DNA of 64,000 nt, taken from the NCBI RefSeq assembly GCF_037038585.1, contig NC_092556.1, forward strand, positions 514,619 through 578,618, read 5' to 3'. Positions 7,054 through 42,580 of this stretch are shown here, one piece after another (the first letter of the stretch is position 1; every line of letters begins with the position of its first letter). The notes under the pieces were generated by a model that saw nothing but the letters and a program-made list of their open reading frames with translations, did not search any database and was not told where the DNA came from. Source of the DNA: Patagioenas fasciata. Its lineage: Eukaryota. Both the position numbers and the translations under genes were made by a program.

Positions 7054-9412
7054 CTGGGACACGGGGACACCCCCGTCACACCCTGGGGACACCCTGGGGA
7101 CACCCTGGGGACACCCTGGGGACACCCCCGTCACACCCTGGGGACACCCCCGTCACACCCTGGGGACACCCCCGGTGACAAAGGACACGGCGGTGAAGCC
7201 CAGCGAGGACAGCACCAGCGTGCGGCTGGGGACATGGGGACAGCCCCGTCACACCCTAGGGACACCCTGGGGACACCCTGGGGACATGGGGACACCCCTG
7301 TCACACCCCTGGGGACACCCTGGGGACACCCTGGGGACACCCCTGTCACACCCTGGGGACACCCTGGGGACACCCTGGGGACACCCCTGTCACACCCTGG
7401 GGACACCCTGGGGACACCCTGGGGACACCCCCGTCACACCCTGGGGACACCCTGGGGACACCCCCGTCACACCCTGGGGACACCCTGGGGACACCCCTGT
7501 CACACCCCATGGGACATGGGGACACCCCTGGGGACATGGGGACACCCCCTGGGGACACCAATGAAACCCTGGGGACACCGCATGGGACACGGGGACACCC
7601 CTGGGGACACCCCTGTCACACCCCATGGCACCCCATGGGACATGGGGACACCCCTGGGGACATGGGGACACCCCCAGGGACACCCCATGGGACTCGGGGA
7701 CACCCCATAGGGACACAGGGACACCCCCGGGGATGCCCCATTGCACCCCATGGGACACGAGGACACCCCCAGGGACAACCCTGGGGACATGGGGACACCC
7801 CATAGGGACACAGGGACACCCCCAGGGACACCCCATGGCACCCATGGGACACGGGGACACCCCTGGTGACACCCCATTGCACCCCATGGGACATGGGGAC
7901 ACCCCTGGGGACACCGCATGGCACCCCATGGGACACAGGGACACCCCATGGGACTCGGGGACACCCCTGGGGACACGGGGACACCCCTGGGGACACCAAT
8001 GAAACCCTGGGGGTGCCAGGTCTACCCCATGGGGACACCAGGTCTACCCAGGGGGACCTGTCCCCATGTCCCCCCATGTCCCCATGTCCCCCATGTCCCC
8101 CATTGTCCCCATATCCCCCAATCCCCCCATAGCCCCCAATCCCCCCATATCCCCATAGCCCCCAATGTCCTCACATCCCCATTGTCCCCATATCCCCCAA
8201 TGTCCCCATGTCCCCCCATAGTCCCCCATTGTCCCCGTATCCCCCAATATCCCCAATCCCCCCACATCCCCCCAATGTCCCCACATCCCCCCATGTCCCC
8301 CATTGTCCCCAATGTCCCCACATCCCCCCATGTCCCCCATTGTCCCCAATGTCCCCACATCCCCCCATGTCCCCCATTGTCCCCAATGTCCCCACATCCC
8401 CCCATGTCCCCATAGCCCCCAATGTCCCCATATCCCCCCATATCCCCAATGTCCCCAATGTCCCCCCATGTCCCCCAATCCCCCCATATCCCCCAATGTC
8501 CCCATGTCCCCCATTGTCCCCATGTCCCCATTATCCCCATAGCCCCCAATGTCCCCACATCCCCCCCTGTCCCCCATTGTCCCCATATCGCCTCATGTCC
8601 CCCTATCCCCCAATGTCCCCAATGTCCCCCATTGTCCCCATATCCCCCATTGTCCCCAATCCCCCCACATCCCCCATTGTCCCCATATCCCCCATTGTCC
8701 CCACATCCCCCCATGCCCCCCAATGTCCCCACACCCCCCAATGTCCCCCAATGTCCCCATTGTCCCCAATGTCCCCACACCCCCCAATGTCCCCATTGTC
8801 CCCATTGTCCCCATTGCCCCCATTGTCCCCAATGTCCCCAATGTCCCCAATGTCCCCATTGCCCCCATTGCCCCCAATGTCCCCAATGTCCCCATTGTCC
8901 CCAATGTCCCCAATGTCCCCACACCCCCCAATGTCCCCACACCCCCCATTGTCCCCAATGTCCCCATTGTCCCCAATGTCCCCACACCCCCCAATCCCCC
9001 CACATCCCCCAATGTCCCTCAATCCCCTCAATGTCCCCCATGTCCCCCATTGTCCCCAATCCCCCCATGCCCCCCATTGTCCCCACATCCCCCCATGCCC
9101 CCCATTGCCCCCATTGCCCCATTGCCCCCATTGTCCCCAATGTCCCCACACCTCCCAATGTCCCCATTGTCCCCACTGTCCCCACTGTCCCCAATGTCCC
9201 CATTGTCCCCAATGTCCCCAATGTCCCCAATGTCCCCCATTGTCCCCAATGTCCCCACACCCCCCAATGTCCCCATTGTCCCCACTGTCCCCACTGTCCC
9301 CAATGTCCCCATTGTCCCCGATGTCCCCAATGTCCCCACACCCCCCATTGCCCCCATTGTCCCCATTGTCCCCAATGTCCCCCAATGTCCCCAGTGTCCC
9401 CCCTGTCCTCAC

Positions 9413-9555
9413 TTGGTGGCCAGGCGGCGCAGGTCGCTGGCCCAGTGCGGGTGGGGGAGGGGCGTGGCGGGGGGCAGCTCCAGGCCCCCCCGGGGGGGGT
9501 CGCTCACCAGCGTCACCAACAGCGCCAGGGCCACCAACCCCAGCACCGGGGTCAC
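9413..9555 (-). CDS. SPNS1: SPNS1 exon 6
   Basis: Acceptor cccgtgtccccag|GTG. Encodes VTPVLGLVALALLVTLVSDPPRGGLELPPATPLPHPHWASDLRALAT(N). Donor ACCAA|gtgagg. Matches human VTPGLGVVAVLLLFLVVREPPRGAVERHSDLPPLNPTSWWADLRALAR. Confidence 0.8.
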
Positions 9556-10654
9556 CTGGGGACACGGGGGGGTCACATGGGGTCACATGGGGGGGTCACA
9601 TGGGGACGGGGGGGGCACGTGGGGGGGGGGCACGTGGGGGGGGGTCACCTGGGGACACGGGGGGGTCACCTGGGGTCACATGGGGGGGTCACATGGGGAC
9701 GGGGGGGGCACGTGGGGGGGGGTCACCTGGGGACACGGGGGGGTCACCTGGGGGGGTCACATGGGGACGGGGGGGGCACGTGGGGGGGTCACCTGGGTCA
9801 TCTGGGGACATGGGGGGGGCACGTGGGGTCACATGGGGGGGTCACATGGGGACGGGGGGGGCACGTGGGGGGGGGGTCACCTGGGGTCACCTGGGGACAC
9901 GGGGGGGGTCACATGGGGATGGGGGGGGCACGTGGGGGGGTCACCTGGGGTCACCTGGGGACATGGGGGGGGGCACGTGGGGTCACATGGGGGGGTCACC
10001 TGGGGCCACCTGGGGTCACCTGGGGACACGGGGGGGCACGTGGGGACGGGGGGGGCACGTGGGGGGGTCACCTGGGGTCATCTGGGGACATGGGGGGGGG
10101 CACGTGGGGTCACATGGGGGGGGTCACCTGGGGACATGGGGGGGTCACCTGGGGGCACCTGGGGATGGGGGGGGGGGGCACATGGGGGGGTCACCTGGGG
10201 TCACCTGGGGACATGGGGGGGCACGTGGGGGCACATGGGGACGGGGGGGGCACGTGGGGGGGGCACGTGGGGACTTGGCGGGGTCACCTGGGGTCACATG
10301 GGGACCCTGTTGAGGACACTGGGGGGGTTTGGGGACCCTGCTGGGGACACTGGGGACCCTTTTGGGGACATTGGGGGGGTTTGGGGACCCTGTTGGGGAC
10401 ACTGGGGACCCTTTTGGGGACATTGGGGGGGTTTGGGGACCCTGTTGGGGACACTGGGGGGTTTGGGGTCACTGTTGGGGACACTGATGGGGACACTGGG
10501 GACCCTGTTGGGGACACTGGGGGGGTTTGGGGACCCTGTTGGGGACCCTGTTGGGGTCACTGATGGGGACACTGGGGACACTGGGGGGGTTTGGGGACAC
10601 TGATGGGGACACTGGGGACATTGGGGCCACTGGGGCCGTGGGTCCCGGGCTCAC

Positions 10655-10721
10655 CCTGAGGGCCCAGCGCCAGTCGGAGGCCACGTCCTTCACCTTGGCC
10701 CCGATGATGTAACCGAGCCCG
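10655..10721 (-). CDS. SPNS1: SPNS1 exon 5
   Basis: Acceptor catgtccccag|C. Encodes (S)GLGYIIGAKVKDVASDWRWALR. Donor CTCAGG|gtgagc. Matches human [23 protein letters not shown]. Confidence 0.85.
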
Positions 10722-13134
10722 CTGGGGACATGGGGACAGCATGGGGACATCAGCGGGGACATGGGGACATCAGCGGGGACATGGGGACATCAGCGGGGAC
10801 ATGGGGACATTGGGGACATGGGGACATTGGGGGCAATGGGGACATGGGGACATTGGGGGCAATGGGGACATCAGCGGGGACATGGGGACATTGGGGACAT
10901 TGGGGACATTGGGGACATGGGGACAATGGGGACATTGGGGACACCATGGGGACATCAGTGGGGACACGGGGACCCCACAATCCCCACCCCCGTGTCCCCA
11001 TGTCCCCATCACCCCCATGGCCCCCAACGTCCCCATAGCCCCCATTGTCCCCAATGTCCCCACTGATGTCCCCATCACCCCCCCATGTCCCCACAACCCC
11101 CAATGTTCCCCCATGTCCCCACATCCCCCCACAACCCCCAATGTCCCTCTGTCCCTCAATGTCCCCATGTCCCCCCACATCCCCAATGTCCCCATTGCCC
11201 CCAATGTCCCATCACCGCCATTGTCCCCAATGTCCCCAATGTCCCCATCACCCCCATCACCCCCATTGTCCCCACTGCCCCCATTGTCCCCATTGCCCCC
11301 AATGCCCCCATTGTGCCCAATACCCCCCACCGCCCCCATTGACCCCCATATTCCCCCAATGTCCCCATTGTTCCCGTCACCCCCACCACCCCCAATGTCC
11401 CCAATGCCCCCAATGTCCCCCCTCCCCCATCACCCCCATTGTCCCCATCACCCCATCCCCCCATTGCCCCCACTGCCCCCATCCCCCCCCACCCCCATCC
11501 CCCCCATCCCTCTCACCGCCCCATCCCCCCATTGCCCCCCATCCCCCCCAATGTCCCCACGTCCCCCATCCCCCCCCCATCCCCCCATCCCCCCCACTGC
11601 CCCCATTGCCCCCCCCACCCCCATCCCCCCCCCCACCCCCAATGCCCCCATTGTCCCCATCCCCCCCATCACCCCCATCCCCCCATTGTCCCCATCCCCC
11701 CCACCACCCCCATCCCCCCATTGCCCCCATTGCCCCCATTGTCCCCCATTACCCCCCCACCCCCATCCCCCCATCCCCCCCACTGCCCCCATCCCCCCCC
11801 CACCCCCATCCCCCCCATTGCCCCCATTGCCCCCCATCCCCCCCACTGCCCCCATCCCTCCCCCACCCCCATCCCCCCATTGCCCCCATTGCCCCCCATC
11901 CCCCCCACTGCCCCCATCCCCCCCACCACCCCCATCCCCCCATTGCCCCCATTGTCCCCCATTACCCCCCCACCCCCATCCCCCCCAATGTCCCCATTGT
12001 CCCCATTGCCCCATCCCCCCCCACCCCCATCCCCCCAATGTCCCCAATGCCCCCATCCCCCCATTGCCCCCAATGTTCCCATTGCCCCCCATTACCCCCC
12101 CACCCCCATCCCCCCCAATGTCCCCATGTCCCCCATCCCCCCCCACCCCCATCCCCCCATTACCCCCAATGTCCCCATTGCCCCCTCACCCCCAATGTCC
12201 TCATCCCCCCATTGTCCCCATCCCCCCAATGTCCCCATTGCCCCCAATGTCCCCATCCCCCTCCCCACCCCCATCTCCCCCATTGTTCCCAATGTCCCCA
12301 TCCCCCCCATCCCCCTCCCCCTCCCCCCCATCCCCCCCATTGCACCCCCCACCCCCATCCCCCCATCCCCCCCATTGCCCCCATCCCCCTCAATGCCCCC
12401 ATTGTCCCCATCCCCCCCCCCACCCCCATCCCCCCCAATGCCCCCAATGTCCCCATGCCCCCATCACTCCCATCCCCCCATCCCCCCCATTGCCCCCCCC
12501 ACCCCCATCCCCCCAATGCCCCCAATGTCCCCATCCCCCCCCATCCCCCTCCCCCTCCCCCCCATCCCCCCCATTGCACCCCCCACCCCCATCCCCCCAT
12601 TGTCCCCATTGCCCCCCATTACCCCCCCACCCCCATCCTGCCCAATGTCCCCATCCCCCCCCACCCCCATCCCCCCATTACCCCCAACGTCCCCATTGCC
12701 CCCTCACCCCCATTGCCCCCATCCCCCCCCAACCCCCCCAATGTCCCCCTCCCCCCCCATCACTCCCATCCCCCCATTGCCCCCATTGCCCCCCATTGCC
12801 CCCCACCCCTATCCCCCCCATTGCTCCCAATGTCCCCATCCCCCCCCCCCTCCCCCCCATCCCCCCATTGCCCCCCATCCCCCCCAATGTCCCCACGTCC
12901 CCCATCCCCCCACCACCCCCATCCCCCCCCCCACCCCCATTGCCCCCATTGTCCCCATCCCCCCACCCCCCCCATCCCCCCACCCCCCCCACCGCCCCAT
13001 CCCCCCACCGCCCCCATCCCCCCCATCCCCCCATCCCCCCCATTACCCCCAATGTCCCCCCCCATCCCCACCCCCCCACTGTCCCCATCCCCCCCACTGT
13101 CCCCCATCCCCCCCCCCAATGTCCCCGCTGTCAC

Positions 13135-13286
13135 CTCCCCAGCGGGACCCCCACGTAGAAGGCGGCGAGCGCGGGGGTGCGGGCGGGGCCGGCGCTGACG
13201 TCAGCGATGAGGGCGGGGGCCAGCGTGCTGAACCCCCCCTCCCCCACCCCCACCAGCGCCCGGCCCAGCAGCAGCAGCCAGAACCC
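13135..13286 (-). CDS. SPNS1: SPNS1 exon 4
   Basis: Acceptor ccgccctttgcgcag|GGG. Encodes GFWLLLLGRALVGVGEGGFSTLAPALIADVSAGPARTPALAAFYVGVPLG(S). Donor GGGGAG|gtgaca. Matches human [51 protein letters not shown]. Confidence 0.85.
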
Positions 13287-14745
13287 CTGCGCAAAGGGCG
13301 GGGTCAGCGGGGGCACGGGGGCACGGGGTCACAGGGGGTCATGGGGTCACAGGGGTCATGGGGTCATAGGGGGCGTGGGGGTCACAGGGGGTCATGGGGT
13401 CACAGGGGCTCACAGGGGGTCACAGGGGGTCAGGGGGTCACAGGGGGTCATGGGGTCATAGGGGGGCGTGGGGTCACAGGGGGCATGGGGTCATATGGGG
13501 TCACGGGGGTCATGGGGTCACAGGGGGTCACAGGGGGTCATGGGGTCACAGGGGGTCAGGGGGTCACAGGGGCTCACAGGGGGTGTGGGGTCACAGGGGG
13601 TCACAGGGGTCATGGGGTCACAGGGGGGCGTGGGGTCACAGGGGGTCATGAGGTCACAGGGGGTCACAGGGGGTCATGGGGGGCAGGGGTCACCGGGGTC
13701 ACGGGGTCAGGGGCTCACAGGGGGTCACAGGGGGTCACGGGGGGCAGGGGTCACACGGGTCATGGGGGCAGGGGGTCACAGGGGGTCATGGGGTCACAGG
13801 GGGTCAGGGGGTCACAGGGGGTCATGGGGTCACAGGGGGTCAGGGGGTCACAGGGGGTCACGGGGGGCAGGGGTCACAGGGGACATGGGGTCAAGGGGTC
13901 ACAGGGGGGCACGGGGTCACAGGGGGGCATGGGGTCATATGGGGTCACGGGGGTCATGGGGTCAGGGGGTCAAAGGGGGTCAGGGGATCACAGGGGTCAT
14001 GGGGTCATGGGGTCACAGGGGGGCGTGGGGTCACAGGGGGTCATGAGGTCACAGGGGGTCATGGGGTCACAGGGGGTCATGGGGTCACAGGGGGTCACAG
14101 GGGTCACGGTCAGGGGGTCACAGGGGGTCAGGGGGTCACAGGGGGGTGTGGGGTCACAGGGGGTCACAGGGGGTCATGGGGTCATAGGGGGGCACGGGGT
14201 CACATAGGGTCACAGGGGGTCATGGGGTCACAGGGTGTCAGGGGGTCACAGGGGGTCACCGGGGTCACGGGGTCAGGGGGTCACACCCACCCCACAGCCC
14301 CCCATGTCCTACCCCATTGTGCCCCACACCCACCCCATACCCACCCCATGTCCCCCCATGTCCCGCCCCACTGTGCCCCACACCCACCCCACACCCACCC
14401 CACAGCCCCCCATGTTCCGCCCCATTGTGCCCCACACCCGCCCCACACCCACCCCACAGCCCCCCATGTCCCGCCCCACTGTGCCCCACACCCACCCCAC
14501 ACCCACCCCACAGCCCCCCATGTCCCGCCCCACTGTGCCCCACATCTGCCCCACACCCACCCCATAGCCCCCCATGTCCCGCCCCATTGTGCCCCACACC
14601 CACCCCACAGCCCCCCATGTCCCCCCATGTCCCGCCCCACTGTGCCCCACATCTGCCCCACACCCACCCCATAGCCCCCCATGTCCCCCCATGTCCCGCC
14701 CCACCGTGCCCCACATCTGCCCCACACCCGCCCCACACCCACCTG

Positions 14746-20238: not shown

Positions 20239-20322
20239 ATGAACGGGGCGGGCGAGGTGGACGGCGGGGGCTACAAACGGCGCTACCGGGCCCTCAAGCG
20301 GCGCCTCAAGCTGCTGCTCTAC
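20239..20322 (+). CDS. INO80E: INO80E (INO80 complex subunit E) exon 1 (start codon)
   Basis: ATG at 20239. Encodes MNGAGEVDGGGYKRRYRALKRRLKLLLY. Donor CTCTAC|gtgagg. Matches human INO80E [27 protein letters not shown]. Confidence 0.85.
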
Positions 20323-20929
20323 GTGAGGGAAAGGGCGGGAAAGGGGGGGGAGGGGGGGCTTGGGGGAGGGGTGGGGGGGAACCCAGAGTGCGGGGGGGGA
20401 TGGGGGCATTGGGGGTTCTGACCCATAAGTGGAGCCATACGTGGCCCCATAGACCCATAAGTGGCCCCATAGATACATAAGTGGCCCCATAGATACATAA
20501 GTGGCCCCATAGACCCATAAGTGGCCCCATAGACTCATAAATGGACCCATAAGTGGCCCCATAGACCCATAAGTGGACCCATGGACCCATAAGTGGCCCC
20601 ATAAGTGGCCCCATAGACCCATAAGTGGACCCATGGACCCAGAACTGGACCCATAGACCCATAAATGGCCCCATAAGTGGATCTTTAGACCCAGAACCTA
20701 CCCCATAGACCCATAAGTGGCCCCATAAGTGGCCCCATAGACCCATAAATGGACCCTTAGACTCGTAAGTGGCCCCATAAGTGGCCCCATAAGTGGACCC
20801 TTAGGCCCATAAGTGGCCCCATAGACCCATAAGTGGCCCCATAAGTGGCCCCATAGACCCATAAATGGACCCATGGACCCATAAGTGGCCCCATAAGTGG
20901 CCCCATAGACCCAGAACTGGACCCATTGT

Positions 20930-22380
20930 GACTTTTGGGTCTGAAATTGGGGATTTTGGGGCCTAAAATGGGGATTTTTGGGCTTAAAATTGTGAATTTG
21001 GGGCCTGAAATTGGGGATTTTGGGGCCTAAAGTGGGGATTTTGGGTCCTAAAATTGTGACTTTGGGGCCTAAAATGGGGATTTTTGGGGCCTAAAATGGG
21101 GAATTTTGTGGCAAAATTGGGGATTTTGGGGCCTAAAATGGGGACTTTTGGGCCTAAAATGGGGAATTTGAGGCCTAAATTGGGTCTTTTTGGATCAAAT
21201 TTGGTGGCTTTTGGGTCAAAATTGGGCCTTTTTGGGTCTGAAATGGAGCATTTTGGGGCCTGGAATTGAGATTTTGGGGTGAAATTGGGGTTTTTGGGGT
21301 GAAATTGGGGTTTTGGGGGTGAAATTGGGGTTTTTGGGGGTGAAATTGGGGTTTTTTGGGGTGAAATTGGGGTTTTTGGGGGTGAAATTGGGGTTTTGGG
21401 GGGTGAAATTGGGGTTTTTTGGGCCTAAAATGGGGATTTTTGGGGTGAAATTGGGGTTTTTGGGGCCTAAAATGGGGATTTTTGGGGGTGAAATTGGGGT
21501 TTTTGGGGTGAAATTGGGGTTTTTGGGGTGAAATTGGGGATTTTGGGGGTGAAATTGGGGTTTTTGGGGGTGAAATTGGGGCTTTTTGGGCCTAAAATGG
21601 GGATTTTTGGGGTGAAATTGGGGTTTTTGGGGCCTAAAATGGGGATTTTTGGGGTGAAATTGGGGATTTTGGGGGTGAAATTGGGGTTTTTGGGGTGAAA
21701 TTGGGGATTTTGGGGTGAAATTGGGGATTTTTGGGGGTGAAATTGGGTTTTTTTGGGGTGAAATTGGGGATTTTGGGGGTGAAATTGGGGTTTTTGGGGG
21801 TGAAATTGGGGCTTTTTGGGCCTAAAATGGGGATTTTTGGGGTGAAATTGGGGTTTTTGGGGCCTAAAATGGGGATTTTTGGGGTGAAATTGGGGATTTT
21901 GGGGGTGAAATTGGGGTTTTTGGGGGTGAAATTGGGGATTTTTGGGGTGAAATTGGGGTTTTTTGGGGGTGAAATTGGGGTTTTTGGGGGTGAAATTGGG
22001 GATTTTTGGGGTGAAATTGGGGATTTTTGGGGGTGAAATTTGGGTTTTTTGGGGTGGAATTGGGGATTTTTGGGGTGAAATTGGGGTTTTTTGGGGGTGA
22101 AATTGGGGTTTTTGGGGGTGAAATTGGGGATTTTTGGGGTGAAATTGGGGATTTTTGGGGGTGAAATTTGGGTTTTTTGGGGTGAAATTGGGGTTTTTGG
22201 GGGTGAAATTGGGGCTTGTTGGGCCTAAAATGGGGATTTTTGGGGTGAAATTGGGGTTTTTTGGGGTGAAATTGGGGATTTTTGGGGGTGAAATTGGGGC
22301 TTGTTGGGCCTAAAATGGGGATTTTGGGGGTGAAATTGGGGTTTTTGGGGTCGTTTCTGGGCGTTTTTCCTCCCGTTTTG
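20930..22380. repeat. Tandem repeats (gggattttggggcctaaaatgggg / ggtgaaattggggtttttgggg family) in INO80E intron 1
   Basis: Direct reading. It is preceded at 20400-20930 by a ccataagtggccccatagaccc family. Confidence 0.85.
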
Positions 22381-22409
22381 CCCAAAATCGCCGTTTTTCG
22401 CCCCGAAAG

Positions 22410-22480
22410 GAGCAGGAATGCTTCCAGGACGAGCTCCGCAGGGCCCAGCGCAAACTGCTCAAGGTCTCGCGCGACAAAAG
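22410..22480 (+). CDS. INO80E: INO80E exon 2
   Basis: Acceptor gccgtttttcgccccgaaag|GAG. Encodes [23 protein letters not shown](S). Donor AAAAG|gtcccg (weak). Matches human [24 protein letters not shown]. Confidence 0.8.
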
Positions 22481-23162
22481 GTCCCGAAACCCCAGAAAAT
22501 CAGCCCAAAATGCACCCGCCCCGCACTCCTGGGTCCCCTGGGGCACTCCTGGGTCCCTTGGGGCACTCCTGGGTCCCCCCCGAACTCCTGGGTCCCTCCC
22601 CGAACTCCTGGGTCCCTCCCGAACTCCTGGGTCCCTCCCCGAACTCCTGGGTCCCTCCCGAACTCCTGGGTCCCTCAGAACTCCTGGGTCCCTTGGGGCA
22701 CTCCTGGGTCCCTCCCCGCACTCCTGGGTCCCTTGGGGCACTCCTGGGTCCCTCCCAAACTCCTGGGTCCCTCCCCGAACTCCTGGGTCCCTCCCCAAAC
22801 TCCTGGGTCCCTCCCGAACTCCTGGGTCCCTCCCCGAACTCCTGGGTCCCCCCCCGAACTCCTGGGTCCCCCCCGAACTCCTGGGTCCCTTGGGGCACTC
22901 CTGGGTCCCTCCCGAACTCCTGGGTCCCTCCCCGAACTCCTGGGTCCCTCCTGAACTCCTGGGTCCCTCCCGCACTCCTGGGTCCCTCCCGAACTCCTGG
23001 GTCCCCCCCGAACTCCTGGGTCCCCTGGGGCACTCCTGGGTCCCTCCCGAACTCCTGTGTCCCCCCCGAACTCCTGGGTCCCTCCCCGAACTCCTGGGTC
23101 CCTCCCGAACTCCTGGGTCCCTCCCGGACGCCTGGGTCCCTCACACCCCCTTTCCCCCCCAG

Positions 23163-23215
23163 TTATTTGCTGGACCGGTTGCTGCTCTATGAGAACGTGG
23201 ATGACGAGACCACAG
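23163..23215 (+). CDS. INO80E: INO80E exon 3
   Basis: Acceptor ccctttcccccccag|T. Encodes (S)YLLDRLLLYENVDDETT(G). Donor CACAG|gtaagg. Matches human SFLLDRLLQYENVDEDSS. Confidence 0.85.
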
Positions 23216-23835
23216 GTAAGGGGGAGGGGGGGCACTTATGGGGCTGGGGGGGGCACTTGGGGGTCACTATGGGGCAGCTATGGGGCACTTATGGGTCAGT
23301 TTGGGGTCACTATGGGGAAGTTGGGGTTCAACGTGGGGCACTGGGGGGGTCCCTATGGGGCAATTTGGGGTCGATTTCAGGCACTTATGGGGCTGGGGGG
23401 GACTTGGGGGTCGCTATGGGTCGCTATGGGGCAGTTATGGGTCAGTTTGGGGCCAATATGGGGAAGTTGGGGGTTAATATGGGGCACTGGGGGGGTCACT
23501 ATGAGGCAGCTATGGGTGGATTTCAGGCACTTATGGGGCTGGGGGGGACTTGGGGGTCGCTATGGGGCAGTTATGGGGCATTTTGGGGCCACTTGGGGGT
23601 CACTATGGGGAAGTGGGGGGGGTCGCTATGGGGCAATTTGGGGTCAATTTCAGGCACTTATGGGGCTGGGGGGCACTTGGGGTTCACTATGGGGCAGATA
23701 TGGGTCACTATGGGGCAGTTATGGGTCAATTGGGGGTCACCGTGGGGCAGTTGTGGGGCTGGGGAAGACACTTGTGGGTCGCTGTGGGTCACGGGGGGTT
23801 GGTCATTGGGTCCCCATTGGCTCCTCCCCCCATAG

Positions 23836-23902
23836 ATTCGGAGGCCACGGCGACGTCCGACAGCGACGGGGACGGGAACAAGGGCAGCGACGGCGGGAAG
23901 AG
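23836..23902 (+). CDS. INO80E: INO80E exon 4
   Basis: Acceptor ctcctccccccatag|AT. Encodes (D)SEATATSDSDGDGNKGSDGGK(R). Donor GAAGAG|gtgggg. Matches human DSDATASSDNSETEGTPK... Confidence 0.75.
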
Positions 23903-23904
23903 GT

Positions 23905-24600
23905 GGGGGCGGGGCCAAGATGGCCGCTGCCAGCATCCAAGATGGCTGCCGGGGGTGTGGGAGGGGTTCCAAGATGGCCGCCAGGGTTCAACATGGCCGC
24001 CCCCAGCATCCAATATGGCTGCCAAAGTCATGGGTGGGGTTCCAATATGGCCGCCAGCATCCAATATGGCCGCCCTCAGCATCCAATATGGCTGCCGGGG
24101 TGGTGGGTGGGGCTCCAATATGGCCACCCCCAACATCCAATATGGCCGCTGGGGTCATGGGAGGGGTTCCAAGATGGCCGCCATCATCCAATATGGCCGC
24201 CTTCAGTATCCAATATGGCCGCCAAGGTCATGGGCGGGGTTTCAAGATGGCTGCCAGAATCCAATATGGCCGTCTCTAGTATCCAATATGGCCGCCAGGG
24301 TCATGGGCCGGGTTTCAATATGGCTGCCATCATCCAATATGGCCGCCTTCAGTATCCAATATGGCCGCCAAGGTCATGGGCGGGGTTCCAATATGGCCGC
24401 CTCGAGTATCCAATATGGCCGCCAGAGTGGTGGGCGGGGCTCCAAGATGGCCGCCAGAATCCAATATGGCCGCCCTCAGTATCCAATATGGCTGCCGGGG
24501 TCATGGGCGGGGTTCCAATATGGCCACCAGAATCCAATATGGCCGCCCTCAGTATCCAATATGGCCGCCAGGGTGGTGGGCGTGGCTCCAAGATGGCCCC
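23905..24600. repeat. Tandem ~90-bp repeat carrying ~24 copies of a YY1-like motif CCAA(G/T)ATGGC(C/T)GCC, in INO80E intron 4
   Basis: Repeated strings include tccaagatggccgcc, tccaatatggccgcc and ttcaacatggccgcc. The YY1 core is AAnATGGCG, and this motif matches it in every position except the final base. Confidence 0.8.
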
Positions 24601-24633
24601 GCCCCCCCCGACCCCGCCCATTTCCCCCCACAG

Positions 24634-24691
24634 GAAGCGCAGCCCCTCCCCCCCCACATCTGCCTTCCAGGCCCCGCCCACTCCATATATG
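24634..24691 (+). CDS. INO80E: INO80E exon 5
   Basis: Acceptor ccatttccccccacag|G. Encodes (R)KRSPSPPTSAFQAPPTPYM. Donor TATATG|gtgagt. Matches human KRKRSPPLGGAPSPSSLSLPP... Confidence 0.75.
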
Positions 24692-25376
24692 GTGAGTGAT
24701 TGTGGCCCCACCCCCTTGTACCCCCCGACCAATTGCAGCTTGGGGGCGTGGCCTGGACCCCTTCCCCCTCCCATTTCCCATGCGGCTCCGCCCCCTTTAC
24801 CCCCAACCAATCCCAATGAGGGGGCGTGGCGTGGACCCCCTTCCCCCTCCCATTTCCCATGCGGCTCCGCCCCCTTTACCCCCAACCAATCCCAATGAGG
24901 GGGCGTGGCCTGCACCCCCTTCCCCCTCCCATTTCCCATGCGGCTCCGCCCCCTTTACCCCCAACCAATCCCAGCGAGGGGGCGTGGCCTGGACCCCCTT
25001 CCCCCTCCCATTTCCCATGCGGCTCCGCCCCCTTTACCCCCAACCAATCCCAGCAAGGGGGTGTGGCCTGCACCCCCTTCCCCCCCATTCCCCTGCAGCT
25101 CCGCCCCCTTTACCCCCCAACCAATCCCAGCAAGGGGGCGTGGCCTGGACCCTCTTCCCCCTCCCATTTCCCATGTGGCTCCGCCCCATTTACCCCCCAA
25201 CCAATCCCAGCAAGGGGGGTGTGGTCTGGACCCTCCCCATTCCCATGTGACTCCGCCCCCTTTACCCCCAACCAATCCCAGCTCAGGGGGGCGTGGTCTC
25301 CCCCCCACCCTCTCCATCCAATGGGAGCTGGGGGGCGTGTCCTCTGCTGACCCCACCCCCCCCATGCCCTTTCCAG

Positions 25377-25502
25377 GTGACCACGCCCCCCTTCAGCCCA
25401 TTGCCCAATGAGCTGCTGGCCCCGCCCGACGGGCCTCGCCCCCCCAGGCCCCGCCCCCCCGGCCCCGCCCGGCGCAGCCGAAGCTCCAACAGGCGCCTGC
25501 AG
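25377..25502 (+). CDS. INO80E: INO80E exon 6
   Basis: Acceptor ccatgccctttccag|GTG. Encodes VTTPPFSPLPNELLAPPDGPRPPRPRPPGPARRSRSSNRRLQ. Donor CTGCAG|gtccgg. Matches human ...[33 protein letters not shown]. Confidence 0.7.
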
Positions 25503-26554
25503 GTCCGGGGGGCGCTATGGGGCGCTATGGGGTGCTATGGGGCACTATGGGGTGCTATGGGGCGCTATGGGGCGCTATGGGGTGCTATGGGGCGCTATGG
25601 GGCGGTGTGGGGCACAGGGGGGCTGGGGTCCTCTATGGGGCCAGGGGGCACTTGGGGGGCTGGGGGGGGGGTCAATATGTGGGGTTGGGGGGGAGTTATG
25701 GGGCACTTGGGGGTCGATGTGTGGGGCTCGGGGGTCTGGGAGGGTCACTTGTGGGTCACTTATGGGTCAGTGTGTGGGTCTGGGGGGTCACTTATGGGTC
25801 TGGGAGGGTCACTTGTGGGTCACTTATGGGTCAATGTGTGGGTCGGGGGTCACTTATGGGTCTGGAGGGTCACTTATGGGTCACTTATGGGTCAACGTGT
25901 GGGTCTGGGGGGGGGGTCACTTATGGGTCTGGGAGGGTCACTTGTGGGTCACTTATGGGTCAATGTGTGGGTTTGTGGTCACTTATGGGTCTGGGAGGGT
26001 CACTTATGGGTCAACGTGTGGGTCTGGGGGGGTCACTTATGGGTCAATGTGTGGGTCCATGGGATCACTTATGGGTCTGGGAGGGTCAGTTATGGGTCTG
26101 AGAGGGTCACTTGTGGGTCAATGTGTGGGTCGGGGGTCACTTATGGGTCAAGGTGTGGGTCTGGGGGGTCTGGGAGGGTCACTTATGGGTCACTTATGGG
26201 TCAGTGTGTGGGTCGGGGGTCACTTATGGGTCTGGGAGGGTCACTTATGGGTCACTTATGGGTCAATGTGTGGGTCTGGGGTCACTTATGGGTCAATGTG
26301 TGGGTCTGGGGTCACTTATGGGTCAACGTGTGGGTCTGGGGGGGTCACTTGCGGGTGAATGTGTGGGTCGGGGATCACTTATGGGTCACCTATGGGTCGA
26401 CGTGTGGGTCTGGGGGGGTCACTTATGGGTCAATGTGTGGGTCTATGGTCACTTACGGGTCCCTTATGTCCCCCCAGCCCCCCCCCGCGCCCCCGTTCCC
26501 CCTCCCCCCGGCCCCTCCCCCGCTGCCCGGTGCCCTCCCCCGGCGGCTGCTGAG

Positions 26555-26644
26555 CCGAGGGGGGGGGAGGGGCCGGGGGGGGAGGGGAGCGGGGACGACG
26601 CCCTGGACGGGGACGACGAGCTGGTGATTGACATCCCCGAGTGA
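26555..26644 (+). CDS. INO80E: INO80E terminal coding segment (conserved C-terminus, stop TGA 26642-26644); 5' boundary ambiguous
   Basis: Encodes PRGGEGPGGEGSGDDALDGDDELVIDIPE*, matching the human C-terminus SGDDALDGDDDLVIDIPE. With acceptor gctgctgag|CCG (AG at 26553-26554) this segment is in frame with exon 6. The stronger acceptor cccttatgtccccccag| at 26476-26477 would instead start the exon at 26478, 2 nt out of frame with this C-terminus. Confidence 0.5.
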   Translation, partial: PRGGEGPGGEGSGDDALDGDDELVIDIPE

Positions 26645-26649
26645 CCTCT

Positions 26650-27310
26650 GACCTCTGACCCCGCCTGACCCCCGGAGTGGCGATGATTGACAGCCCGAGG
26701 GATCCCATGTGACTTCTGAGTGGCGATGATTGACAACCCAAGTGACCCCATGTGACCCCTGGGAGCCCACGTGACCCCAGAGCAAGGATGATTGACAGCC
26801 CAAGTGACCCCATGTGACCCCTGAGTGGCCATTGATTGACAACCCAAGTGACCCCATGTGACCCCTGGGAGCCCACGTGACCCCGGAGCAAGGATGATTG
26901 ACAGCCCAAGTGACCCCATGTGACCCCACGTGACCCCGGAGCAAGGATGATTGACAGCCCAAGTGACCCCATGTGACCCCACGTGACCCCGGAGCAAGGA
27001 TGATTGACAGCCCAAGTGACCCCATGTGACCCCACGTGACCCCGGAGCAAGGATGATTGACAACTGGAGTGACCCCATGTGACCCCTGGGACCTCACGTG
27101 ACCCCCGATTGGCCGTTGATTGACAACCCAAGTGACCCCTGGGACCTCATGACCCCATGTGACCCCGGAGTGGCGATGATTGACAGCCCAAGTGACCCCA
27201 TGTGACCCTGGAGCAAGAATGATTGACAACCCAAGTGACCCCATGTGACCCCCAAGTGGCCATTGATTGACAGCCCAAGTGACCCACGTGATTGATTGAC
27301 AACCCAAGTG
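26650..27310. repeat. ~55-60 bp tandem repeat (~11 units: gtgaccccatgtgacccc...ggagcaaggatgattgacagcccaa) inside the INO80E 3'UTR
   Basis: Each unit contains TGATTGACA(G/A). The array lies between the stop at 26644 and AATAAA at 27353. Confidence 0.8.
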
Positions 27311-35463: not shown

Positions 35464-38400
<2,937 letters not shown>

Positions 38401-38407
38401 CACCCAC

Positions 38408-39096
38408 CTGGAGAAGCTCTTCCCGCAGTGGCTGCACCCGTAGGGCTTGTGCACGGCCCCGTCGTGCGAGCGCACGTGGTGGCTCATCCTGTCCTTACGC
38501 TTGAAGCGCTGCTGGCACACGGGGCACTGGTGGGGCTTCTCGTCCGAGTGGGACAACTGGTGCCTCTTCAGGTGGTAGACGTCCCGAAACGCCTTCCCGC
38601 ACATCTCGCACGCGTGGTTCTTCCTCCCGCGTCCCCCTTTATTCCCTCCCCCCGCCGCCCCCGTCCCCTCCAAGGCGGCGGCCGAGACGCTCAACAGGCT
38701 CAAGGGGACCATGGTTGGCATCTTCATGGCGGCGTTGCCGGCCCCCTGGGGGACGTTGGTGGCCTTGTGGGTGGCCTGGTGGCGTCGGAGGTTGTAGCCG
38801 TTCTTGAACTCCTTGGCGCAAAGGGCGCAGACGTGGGGGCCTTTGGATTTGGATTTGCGGGGGGGGTCCGGGGTGGGGGTGGTGGGGGGTTGGGGTTGGG
38901 CGGGGGGTTGGGGTGGTGGGGGTGGGGGTGGGGGTGGGGGAGGGGAAGGGCCCGGCGGGGGTTTGAGGGCGGCGGCGTCGACGGTGGGGGCGGGGGAGGG
39001 GGTGGGGGAGGGGGAGGGGGGGGCGGGGGGGAGGACGGGGAGGAGGTCGACGGGGAGGGGGGAGGGGTCGGGGGGGGGGGGAGGGGCGGCGGCGGC
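38408..39096 (-). CDS. MAZ: MAZ large exon (proline-rich N-terminal region plus ZF1-ZF3)
   Basis: Candidate acceptor tttcccccccacag|GCC at 39097-39098, with an in-frame TAA 8 codons upstream. Encodes [228 protein letters not shown](R). Donor TCTCCAG|gtgggt. Matches human MAZ ...PLQVDLLPVL...STVDTAALKQPP...KSKGPYICALCAKEFKNGYNLRRHEAIH...AMKMPTMVPLSLLS...HACEMCGKAFRDVYHLNRHKLSHSDEKPYQCPVCQQRFKRKDRMSYHVRSHDGAVHKPYNCSHCGKSFSR. The first coding exon (start ATG) was not located. Confidence 0.75.
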
Positions 39097-39099
39097 CTG

Positions 39100-42580
<3,481 letters not shown>

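Follow-up and report, generated by a model that had tools for sequence, protein, structure and literature searches.

A one-base frame break in the last exon of INO80E from Patagioenas fasciata is probably a homopolymer-length assembly error

How the product of the INO80E gene in Patagioenas fasciata ends is the question raised by the 64,000-nt stretch of DNA analyzed here (the window), since the obvious splice acceptor of the last exon opens one reading frame and the deeply conserved C-terminus is found in another. The original prediction offered three explanations, i.e., an error of homopolymer length in the assembly, use of a weaker in-frame acceptor or a real frameshift. The gene was rebuilt from the sequence, with human INO80E serving only as a probe. 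INO80E lies on the plus strand and has seven coding exons, of which exons 1-6 span 20239-25502 (^ marks a splice boundary; hyphens mark codons split between exons):

Exon 1, 20239-20322, plus strand: ATG start; MNGAGEVDGGGYKRRYRALKRRLKLLLY; donor TAC^gtgagg; blastn match to eight bird loci
Exon 2, 22410-22480, plus strand: EQECFQDELRRAQRKLLKVSRDK-; donor AAAAG^gtcccg; blastn match to eight bird loci
Exon 3, 23163-23215, plus strand: -YLLDRLLLYENVDDETT-
Exon 4, 23836-23902, plus strand: -SEATATSDSDGDGNKGSDGGK-
Exon 5, 24634-24691, plus strand: -KRSPSPPTSAFQAPPTPYM; ends in phase 0
Exon 6, 25377-25502, plus strand: VTTPPFSPLPNELLAPPDG...RRSRSSNRRLQ; ends in phase 0; donor CAG^gtccgg

The assembled protein matched the Pfam family PF24237 (INO80E) over residues 12-58 with 80.3 bits (cutoff, 27.8). 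A protein search gave 408 matches headed by bird and reptile INO80E, that of Grus being the best full-length match (60% identity, 100% coverage), and exons 1, 2 and 7 aligned by blastn to the INO80E loci of eight birds. The identity originally predicted for the gene is thus borne out by Pfam and by its relatives in the databases; judged by these matches, the gene is a bird INO80E orthologue and an ordinary member of its family. Full-length and exon 4-7 queries of a collection of 5.8 billion proteins returned orthologues only, with no INO80E protein or transcript from the same species. Like other vertebrate INO80E genes, the one in the window has the N-terminal domain, the exon order and a phase-0 last intron, and its GDDELVIDIPE end is identical to that of other birds. 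It differs in that its last exon is shorter than that of Grus or Coccothraustes, its G-rich Gly/Glu linker is expanded and the residues LLLYENVDDETT diverge from those of other birds.

Since exons 1-6 sum to 459 nt, the last junction is in phase 0, as had been predicted. The 3' end of exon 6 reads AAC AGG CGC CTG CAG^gtccgg (NRRLQ), and ...SRRLQ occupies the equivalent position in the Grus, Dryobates and Eudromia proteins. Another donor or phase for exon 6 was considered and rejected: there is no further GT near the junction, and both exon ends match the orthologues in one frame. The donors of exon 2 (AAAAG^gtcccg, 22478-22486) and exon 6 (CAG^gtccgg, 25500-25508) deviate from the gtragt consensus; both exon ends are nonetheless backed by the junctions in orthologue proteins.

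Beyond exon 6, the sequence is organized as follows:

Intron 6, 25503-26477, plus strand: 975 nt, mainly units of the GGGTCACTTATGGGTC type in tandem; the tract cccttatgtcccccc precedes the acceptor AG (26476-26477)
Last exon, first part, 26478-26555, plus strand: acceptor frame, codons 26478+3k, reading PPPAPPFPLPPAPPPLPGALPRRLLS
Alternative AG, 26553-26554, plus strand: gctgctgag^CCG; phase 0 and in frame with the conserved C-terminus; unlikely as a normal acceptor
G-rich tract, 26556-26587, plus strand: CGA-G9-A-G4-CC-G8-A-G4, 32 nt; holds the frame break
Last exon, second part, 26588-26644, plus strand: the other frame, codons 26588+3k, reading SGDDALDGDDELVIDIPE, with stop codon TGA at 26642-26644

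The sole usable acceptor is cccttatgtccccccag, with its AG at 26476-26477, so that the last exon begins at 26478. This acceptor, picked out in the original prediction as the strong one leading into the TTSW frame, has homologues of the form ...ccccccag^C(C/T)(T/C)CCCCC in Grus, Coccothraustes, Passer and Athene. As assembled, the product in the acceptor frame runs PPPAPPFPLPPAPPPLPGALPRRLLSRGGGRGRGGRGAGTTPWTGTTSW and stops after ...TTSW. The conserved C-terminal end, GSGDDALDGDDELVIDIPE or ...GGEGSGDDALDGDDELVIDIPE before the stop codon, lies one base earlier in frame: codons 26441+3k read ...AAAEPRGGEGPGGEGSGDDALDGDDELVIDIPE as far as the TGA at 26642-26644. The conserved motif ...SD.GEGSGDD.LDGDDELVIDIPE is therefore present, but it is offset by one base from the frame of the acceptor and of LPRRLLS.

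The last exon was compared with INO80E genomic loci from eight birds, namely Grus americana (L001), Coccothraustes coccothraustes (L002), Passer domesticus (L003), Anas platyrhynchos (L004), Eudromia elegans (L005), Athene noctua (L006), Phaenicophaeus curvirostris (L007) and Dryobates pubescens (L008). This comparison with related species, which had been suggested as a check at the level of cDNA, put the conserved C-terminus in one frame with the acceptor in six of the eight. Grus, Coccothraustes, Athene, Phaenicophaeus, Dryobates and Eudromia all keep one frame open between their homologous acceptor and the stop, reading ...PP(V/I)P.T(V/L)PRR(L/M)LSD..GEGSGDD.LDGDDELVIDIPE, with T or S before (V/L)PRR, and ending in GDDELVIDIPE. 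In the window, PPPAPP...LPRRLLS (26478-26555) matches the orthologues in the acceptor frame only, and EGSGDD...IPE (from 26588) in the other frame only. The window was scored against a profile of nine last-exon peptides of birds. For the first half (26478-26555), the acceptor frame reached 15.7 bits and the remaining two -5.1 and -2.1 bits; 500 shuffles of the first-half peptide averaged -2.0 bits, with a maximum of 6.2. For the second half (from 26582), it was the other frame that scored, with 33.8 bits, compared with -1.3 and -0.8 bits elsewhere. The claim that the conserved end lies in a different frame from the acceptor is borne out by these scores of 15.7 and 33.8 bits in separate frames.

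At the nucleotide level, all eight orthologues have RR(L/M)LS codons aligned to CGG CGG CTG CTG AGC, and SGDD codons aligned to AGC GGG GAC GAC.... Differences from the orthologues at codon positions 1/2/3 numbered 11/3/15 for the first segment and, for the second, 10/4/27, with each segment counted in its own frame. Since this bias toward third positions holds for each half in its own frame, it points to purifying selection in both frames. Judged by alignment, the two halves are ancestral coding sequence lying in different frames rather than a chance resemblance. Downstream of the G tract, conservation extends to 20 of 20 residues and to where the stop lies; over ~60 nt there are just 3 differences from Grus, two of them synonymous, and the stop position is identical in Grus, Athene, Eudromia, Coccothraustes and Phaenicophaeus. 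The C-terminal motif itself is conserved from fish to mammals.

Since the two halves are conserved in different frames in the window and share a single frame in orthologues, the break must fall within 26556-26587. This tract, with two homopolymers of at least 8 nt, is flanked by the conserved Ser codons AGC at 26553-26555 and AGC at 26588-26590; an intact gene requires 33 or 30 nt between them and the assembly has 32. Its G9 occupies 26559-26567; the G8 lies at 26575-26582, separated by A-GGGG-CC, and the range first given for both runs (26559-26574) covers only the G9 and this spacer. The tract fits the G-quadruplex motif G3+N1-7 x4, starting at 26559, and seems to be a G8-9AGGGG unit that was duplicated in this lineage specifically, with G7AG4 in Athene and (GGGGAG)3 in Coccothraustes. 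Alternative models of the whole exon were scored against the bird last-exon profile:

As written: 25.8 bits
C9 to C10, all in the conserved-end frame: 32.1 bits
Alternative acceptor, exon start 26555: 36.7 bits
G9 to G7: 57.1 bits
G9 to G10: 58.5 bits
G8 to G9: 61.1 bits
G8 to G6: 66.9 bits

By model score and orthologue comparison, the frame switch is inside or beside the G runs, in agreement with where it was originally placed. Because the Gly/Glu linker varies among birds and the four G-run models all score 57-67 bits, G9 and G8, and +1 and -2, stay alternatives.

We infer that the frame break probably (at roughly 75%) reflects a homopolymer given the wrong length in the assembly, in an avian gene that is rich in GC and prone to form G-quadruplexes; of the three explanations offered at the outset, this is the best supported. 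As a biological feature, the break is most probably not real. According to this reading, the last exon would normally stay in the same frame all the way from its start at 26478 to the end of the stop codon at 26644, and in this assembly the tract at 26556-26587 would lack one base (or have two in excess), most likely through under-calling of the G9 or G8 homopolymer in sequencing or consensus, either of which could be the run affected. The true product would be ...NRRLQ PPPAPPFPLPPAPPPLPGALPRRLLS-(R)GGGEGPGGEG-SGDDALDGDDELVIDIPE, followed by the stop, and the corrected gene model would read ...NRRLQ^PPPAPPFPLPPAPPPLPGALPRRLLS(R)GGGEGPGGEGSGDDALDGDDELVIDIPE and stop, with a linker uncertain by one residue. 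Adding one base to a run of 8-9 G corrects in the direction of homopolymer shortening. Modern HiFi consensus at normal coverage usually gets a G9 right, which counts against an artefact. Even HiFi reads still have their weak point in homopolymers (Merfin preprint, 10.1101/2021.07.16.452324). The case resembles the long-read homopolymer indel errors behind RefSeq LOW QUALITY PROTEIN records, with a net 1-nt deficit in G9/G8 and both flanks conserved as coding sequence in different frames; it differs in that the tract is also a lineage-specific expansion, and real variation in length is possible.

The two orthologues that are not single-frame, both from long-read assemblies, are broken in a similar manner. 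In Passer domesticus the frame is broken at the homologous G4AG6AG6AG4 tract, where a -1 shift is needed, and the annotated protein switches from one frame, which it keeps as far as ...SDPGEGGG, to the other, which it takes up at EGSDD. In Anas platyrhynchos it is broken at another G8, further upstream in the last exon. NCBI labels INO80E of both species LOW QUALITY PROTEIN, i.e., as frame-corrected models. The broken last exons lie at 8513-8842 of L003 (Passer domesticus) and 3562-3921 of L004 (Anas platyrhynchos), and that of Passer shows an apparent second shift relative to Coccothraustes in its GGRGPGSP segment.

Hron et al. (2015; PMC4539667) recovered GC-rich avian 'hidden genes' from raw reads of chicken, and INO80E is one of those they name. 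Such genes, with their very high GC content, long stretches of G/C and predicted quadruplexes, are hard to sequence and poorly represented in assemblies (PMC4539667); the INO80E of the window shares these traits but differs in being fully assembled, one frame break being its only defect. Homopolymers of at least 8 nt, all of them G or C, number 89 in the 64 kb, so there are many opportunities for run-length errors. Neighboring genes were considered as a control for the indel rate: Grus PAGR1 had no match in the window, and the list of open reading frames, mostly repeat-derived, held no second conserved gene.

Should the assembly be correct, one account would be a real frameshift in the germline, whether private, polymorphic or fixed recently, that arose by replication slippage in the G tract; we regard this as unlikely. 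INO80E of this bird or haplotype would then end in ...RRLLSRGGGRGRGGRGAGTTPWTGTTSW and a stop, without the conserved acidic C-terminus, which is precisely the product that the given sequence encodes. Since the tract appears to be a lineage-specific expansion of a G-rich, microsatellite-like element and fits a G-quadruplex motif, it should be mutable in reality, making a true indel allele plausible and counting against an artefact; moreover, such regions have been reported to be unstable on avian dot chromosomes (PMC12954441). However, no frame decay was found downstream of the tract, where frame and stop are kept and differences from other birds are mostly synonymous, so any real frameshift must be very young. 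The conservation of the lost motif from fish to mammals also speaks against this allele, and homopolymer frameshifts in long-read assemblies are presumably commoner than true heterozygous losses of function per gene. Splicing to the weaker AG at 26553-26554 would give ...NRRLQ^PRGGEGPGGEGSGDDALDGDDELVIDIPE and a stop with no indel at all. As originally claimed, this AG is in frame at phase 0; it follows a C-rich tract and retains the conserved end (36.7 bits), and a Bubo scandiacus gene model (P0021) makes a similar join, straight to GEGSGDD. Its use is nevertheless improbable, since it loses 78 nt that are coding in the acceptor frame and homologous to the orthologues, including PPAPPPLP..LPRRLLS; the acceptor of four orthologues corresponds in position to 26476-26477 instead, and the score falls 20-30 bits below the frame-switch models (57-67 bits). 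There is even less to be said for a C9 at the start of the exon (26478-26486) that is truly C10, placing the whole exon in the conserved-end frame (PPPRAPVPPPPGPSPAARCPPPAAAEPRGGEG...). One added C does open the frame to the conserved stop, and tblastn with human INO80E aligned the conserved-end frame end to end. But this frame scores -5.1 bits over the first half, against 15.7 in the acceptor frame, and 32.1 over the whole exon, against 57-67, and the RRLLS codons align nucleotide-for-nucleotide with orthologue RR(L/M)LS in the acceptor frame. The reading of the entire exon in the conserved-end frame was rejected on profile scores and nucleotide homology.

That the genome is correct and the mRNA is recoded, either by a -1 ribosomal slip on G_GGG_GGG, possibly assisted by a downstream RNA G-quadruplex, or by polymerase slippage on the G run, seems to us barely conceivable. 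The shift required is indeed -1, as it is at the homologous tract in Passer; a formal X_XXY_YYZ heptamer, G_GGG_GGG, is found at 26561-26567, the G9, read in the acceptor frame, makes up three GGG codons, and 26559 is the first position of the G-quadruplex motif. The likeness to programmed -1 ribosomal frameshifting is one of resemblance only, in shift direction and heptamer. The two-frame arrangement is not conserved, six of the eight orthologue loci being single-frame, and since these six also have no slippery run, there is no conserved recoding signal. The downstream 93 nt fold no better than shuffles (MFE -38.5 against a shuffle mean of -36.6 kcal/mol, z = -0.59, from a folding tool that does not model G-quadruplexes). 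Heptamers made up entirely of G are not known as efficient slippery sites, and we know of no precedent for such recoding in bird nuclear genes. There is thus hardly any prospect that the 32-nt tract is correct and that the conserved C-terminus is still made through -1 ribosomal or transcriptional slippage on a G9 beside G-quadruplex-forming sequence. The corollary, equally remote, would be that INO80E is recoded in birds at its G-rich linker, which would tolerate changes in length or even exploit them, with Passer domesticus as a second instance.

If the frame break is an artefact, as we favor, the gene model has to be either corrected by one base or flagged as LOW QUALITY, and it is not to be read as a truncated protein or as evidence of a rescue splice site. 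Since the G tract of the INO80E last exon has been a recurrent point of failure, in the window as well as in Passer and Anas, it is a candidate checkpoint for polishing. Were the indel real, a subunit of a chromatin remodeller would lose a C-terminal motif conserved across vertebrates, which would be of modest interest; recoding, if true, would be of wide interest, but it is very unlikely.

The surroundings of the gene are also unusual. The window is repeat-laden, with a GC content of 60-70% over most of its length, and each of INO80E introns 1-6 (20435-26468) is filled by its own tandem array:

Tandem array, 20933-22350: period 21
Tandem array, 22515-23142: period 19/39
Tandem array, 23231-23735: period about 146
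Tandem array, 23907-24600: period 73
Tandem array, 24704-25324: period 79
Tandem array, 25732-26468: period about 62

'Sequence stuttering' was recently described in chicken dot-chromosome genes (PMC12954441), and the intron arrays of the window match this description in another bird. The intron-6 unit GGGTCACTTATGGGTC... is common to intron 6 of Athene noctua (25729-26646 against 4751-5631 of L006, 69% identity over 981 columns), and similar GTCACTTG/GGGGCACTTG units occur upstream of the last exon in Eudromia and Dryobates. Since such units are common to several birds, the array, or a tendency to form one, seems to be old.

A further array, with a period of 53/106, lies just 3' of INO80E at 26682-27285 and consists of copies of the end of the last exon. 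The sequence GATTGACA occurs 14 times in the 64 kb, always within 26626-27294, and its first copy is the VIDI codons; every copy is then followed by ...CCCAAGTGACC, imitating CCCGAGTGACC, the region of the stop codon. The array thus resembles the exon-derived expansions described for some chicken genes in the stuttering paper (PMC12954441). Elsewhere in the window, extreme homopolymers include a G24 and a G15 five bases apart (42278-42321) and a C17 (19643-19659). At 8200-14200 and 37800-42400, two or three plus-strand frames are open together and encode Pro/Ser-rich repeats (PPSPP, PIAP...); the open reading frames there reach 922 and 1532 aa, and either a proline-rich gene or a C-rich tandem repeat is possible.
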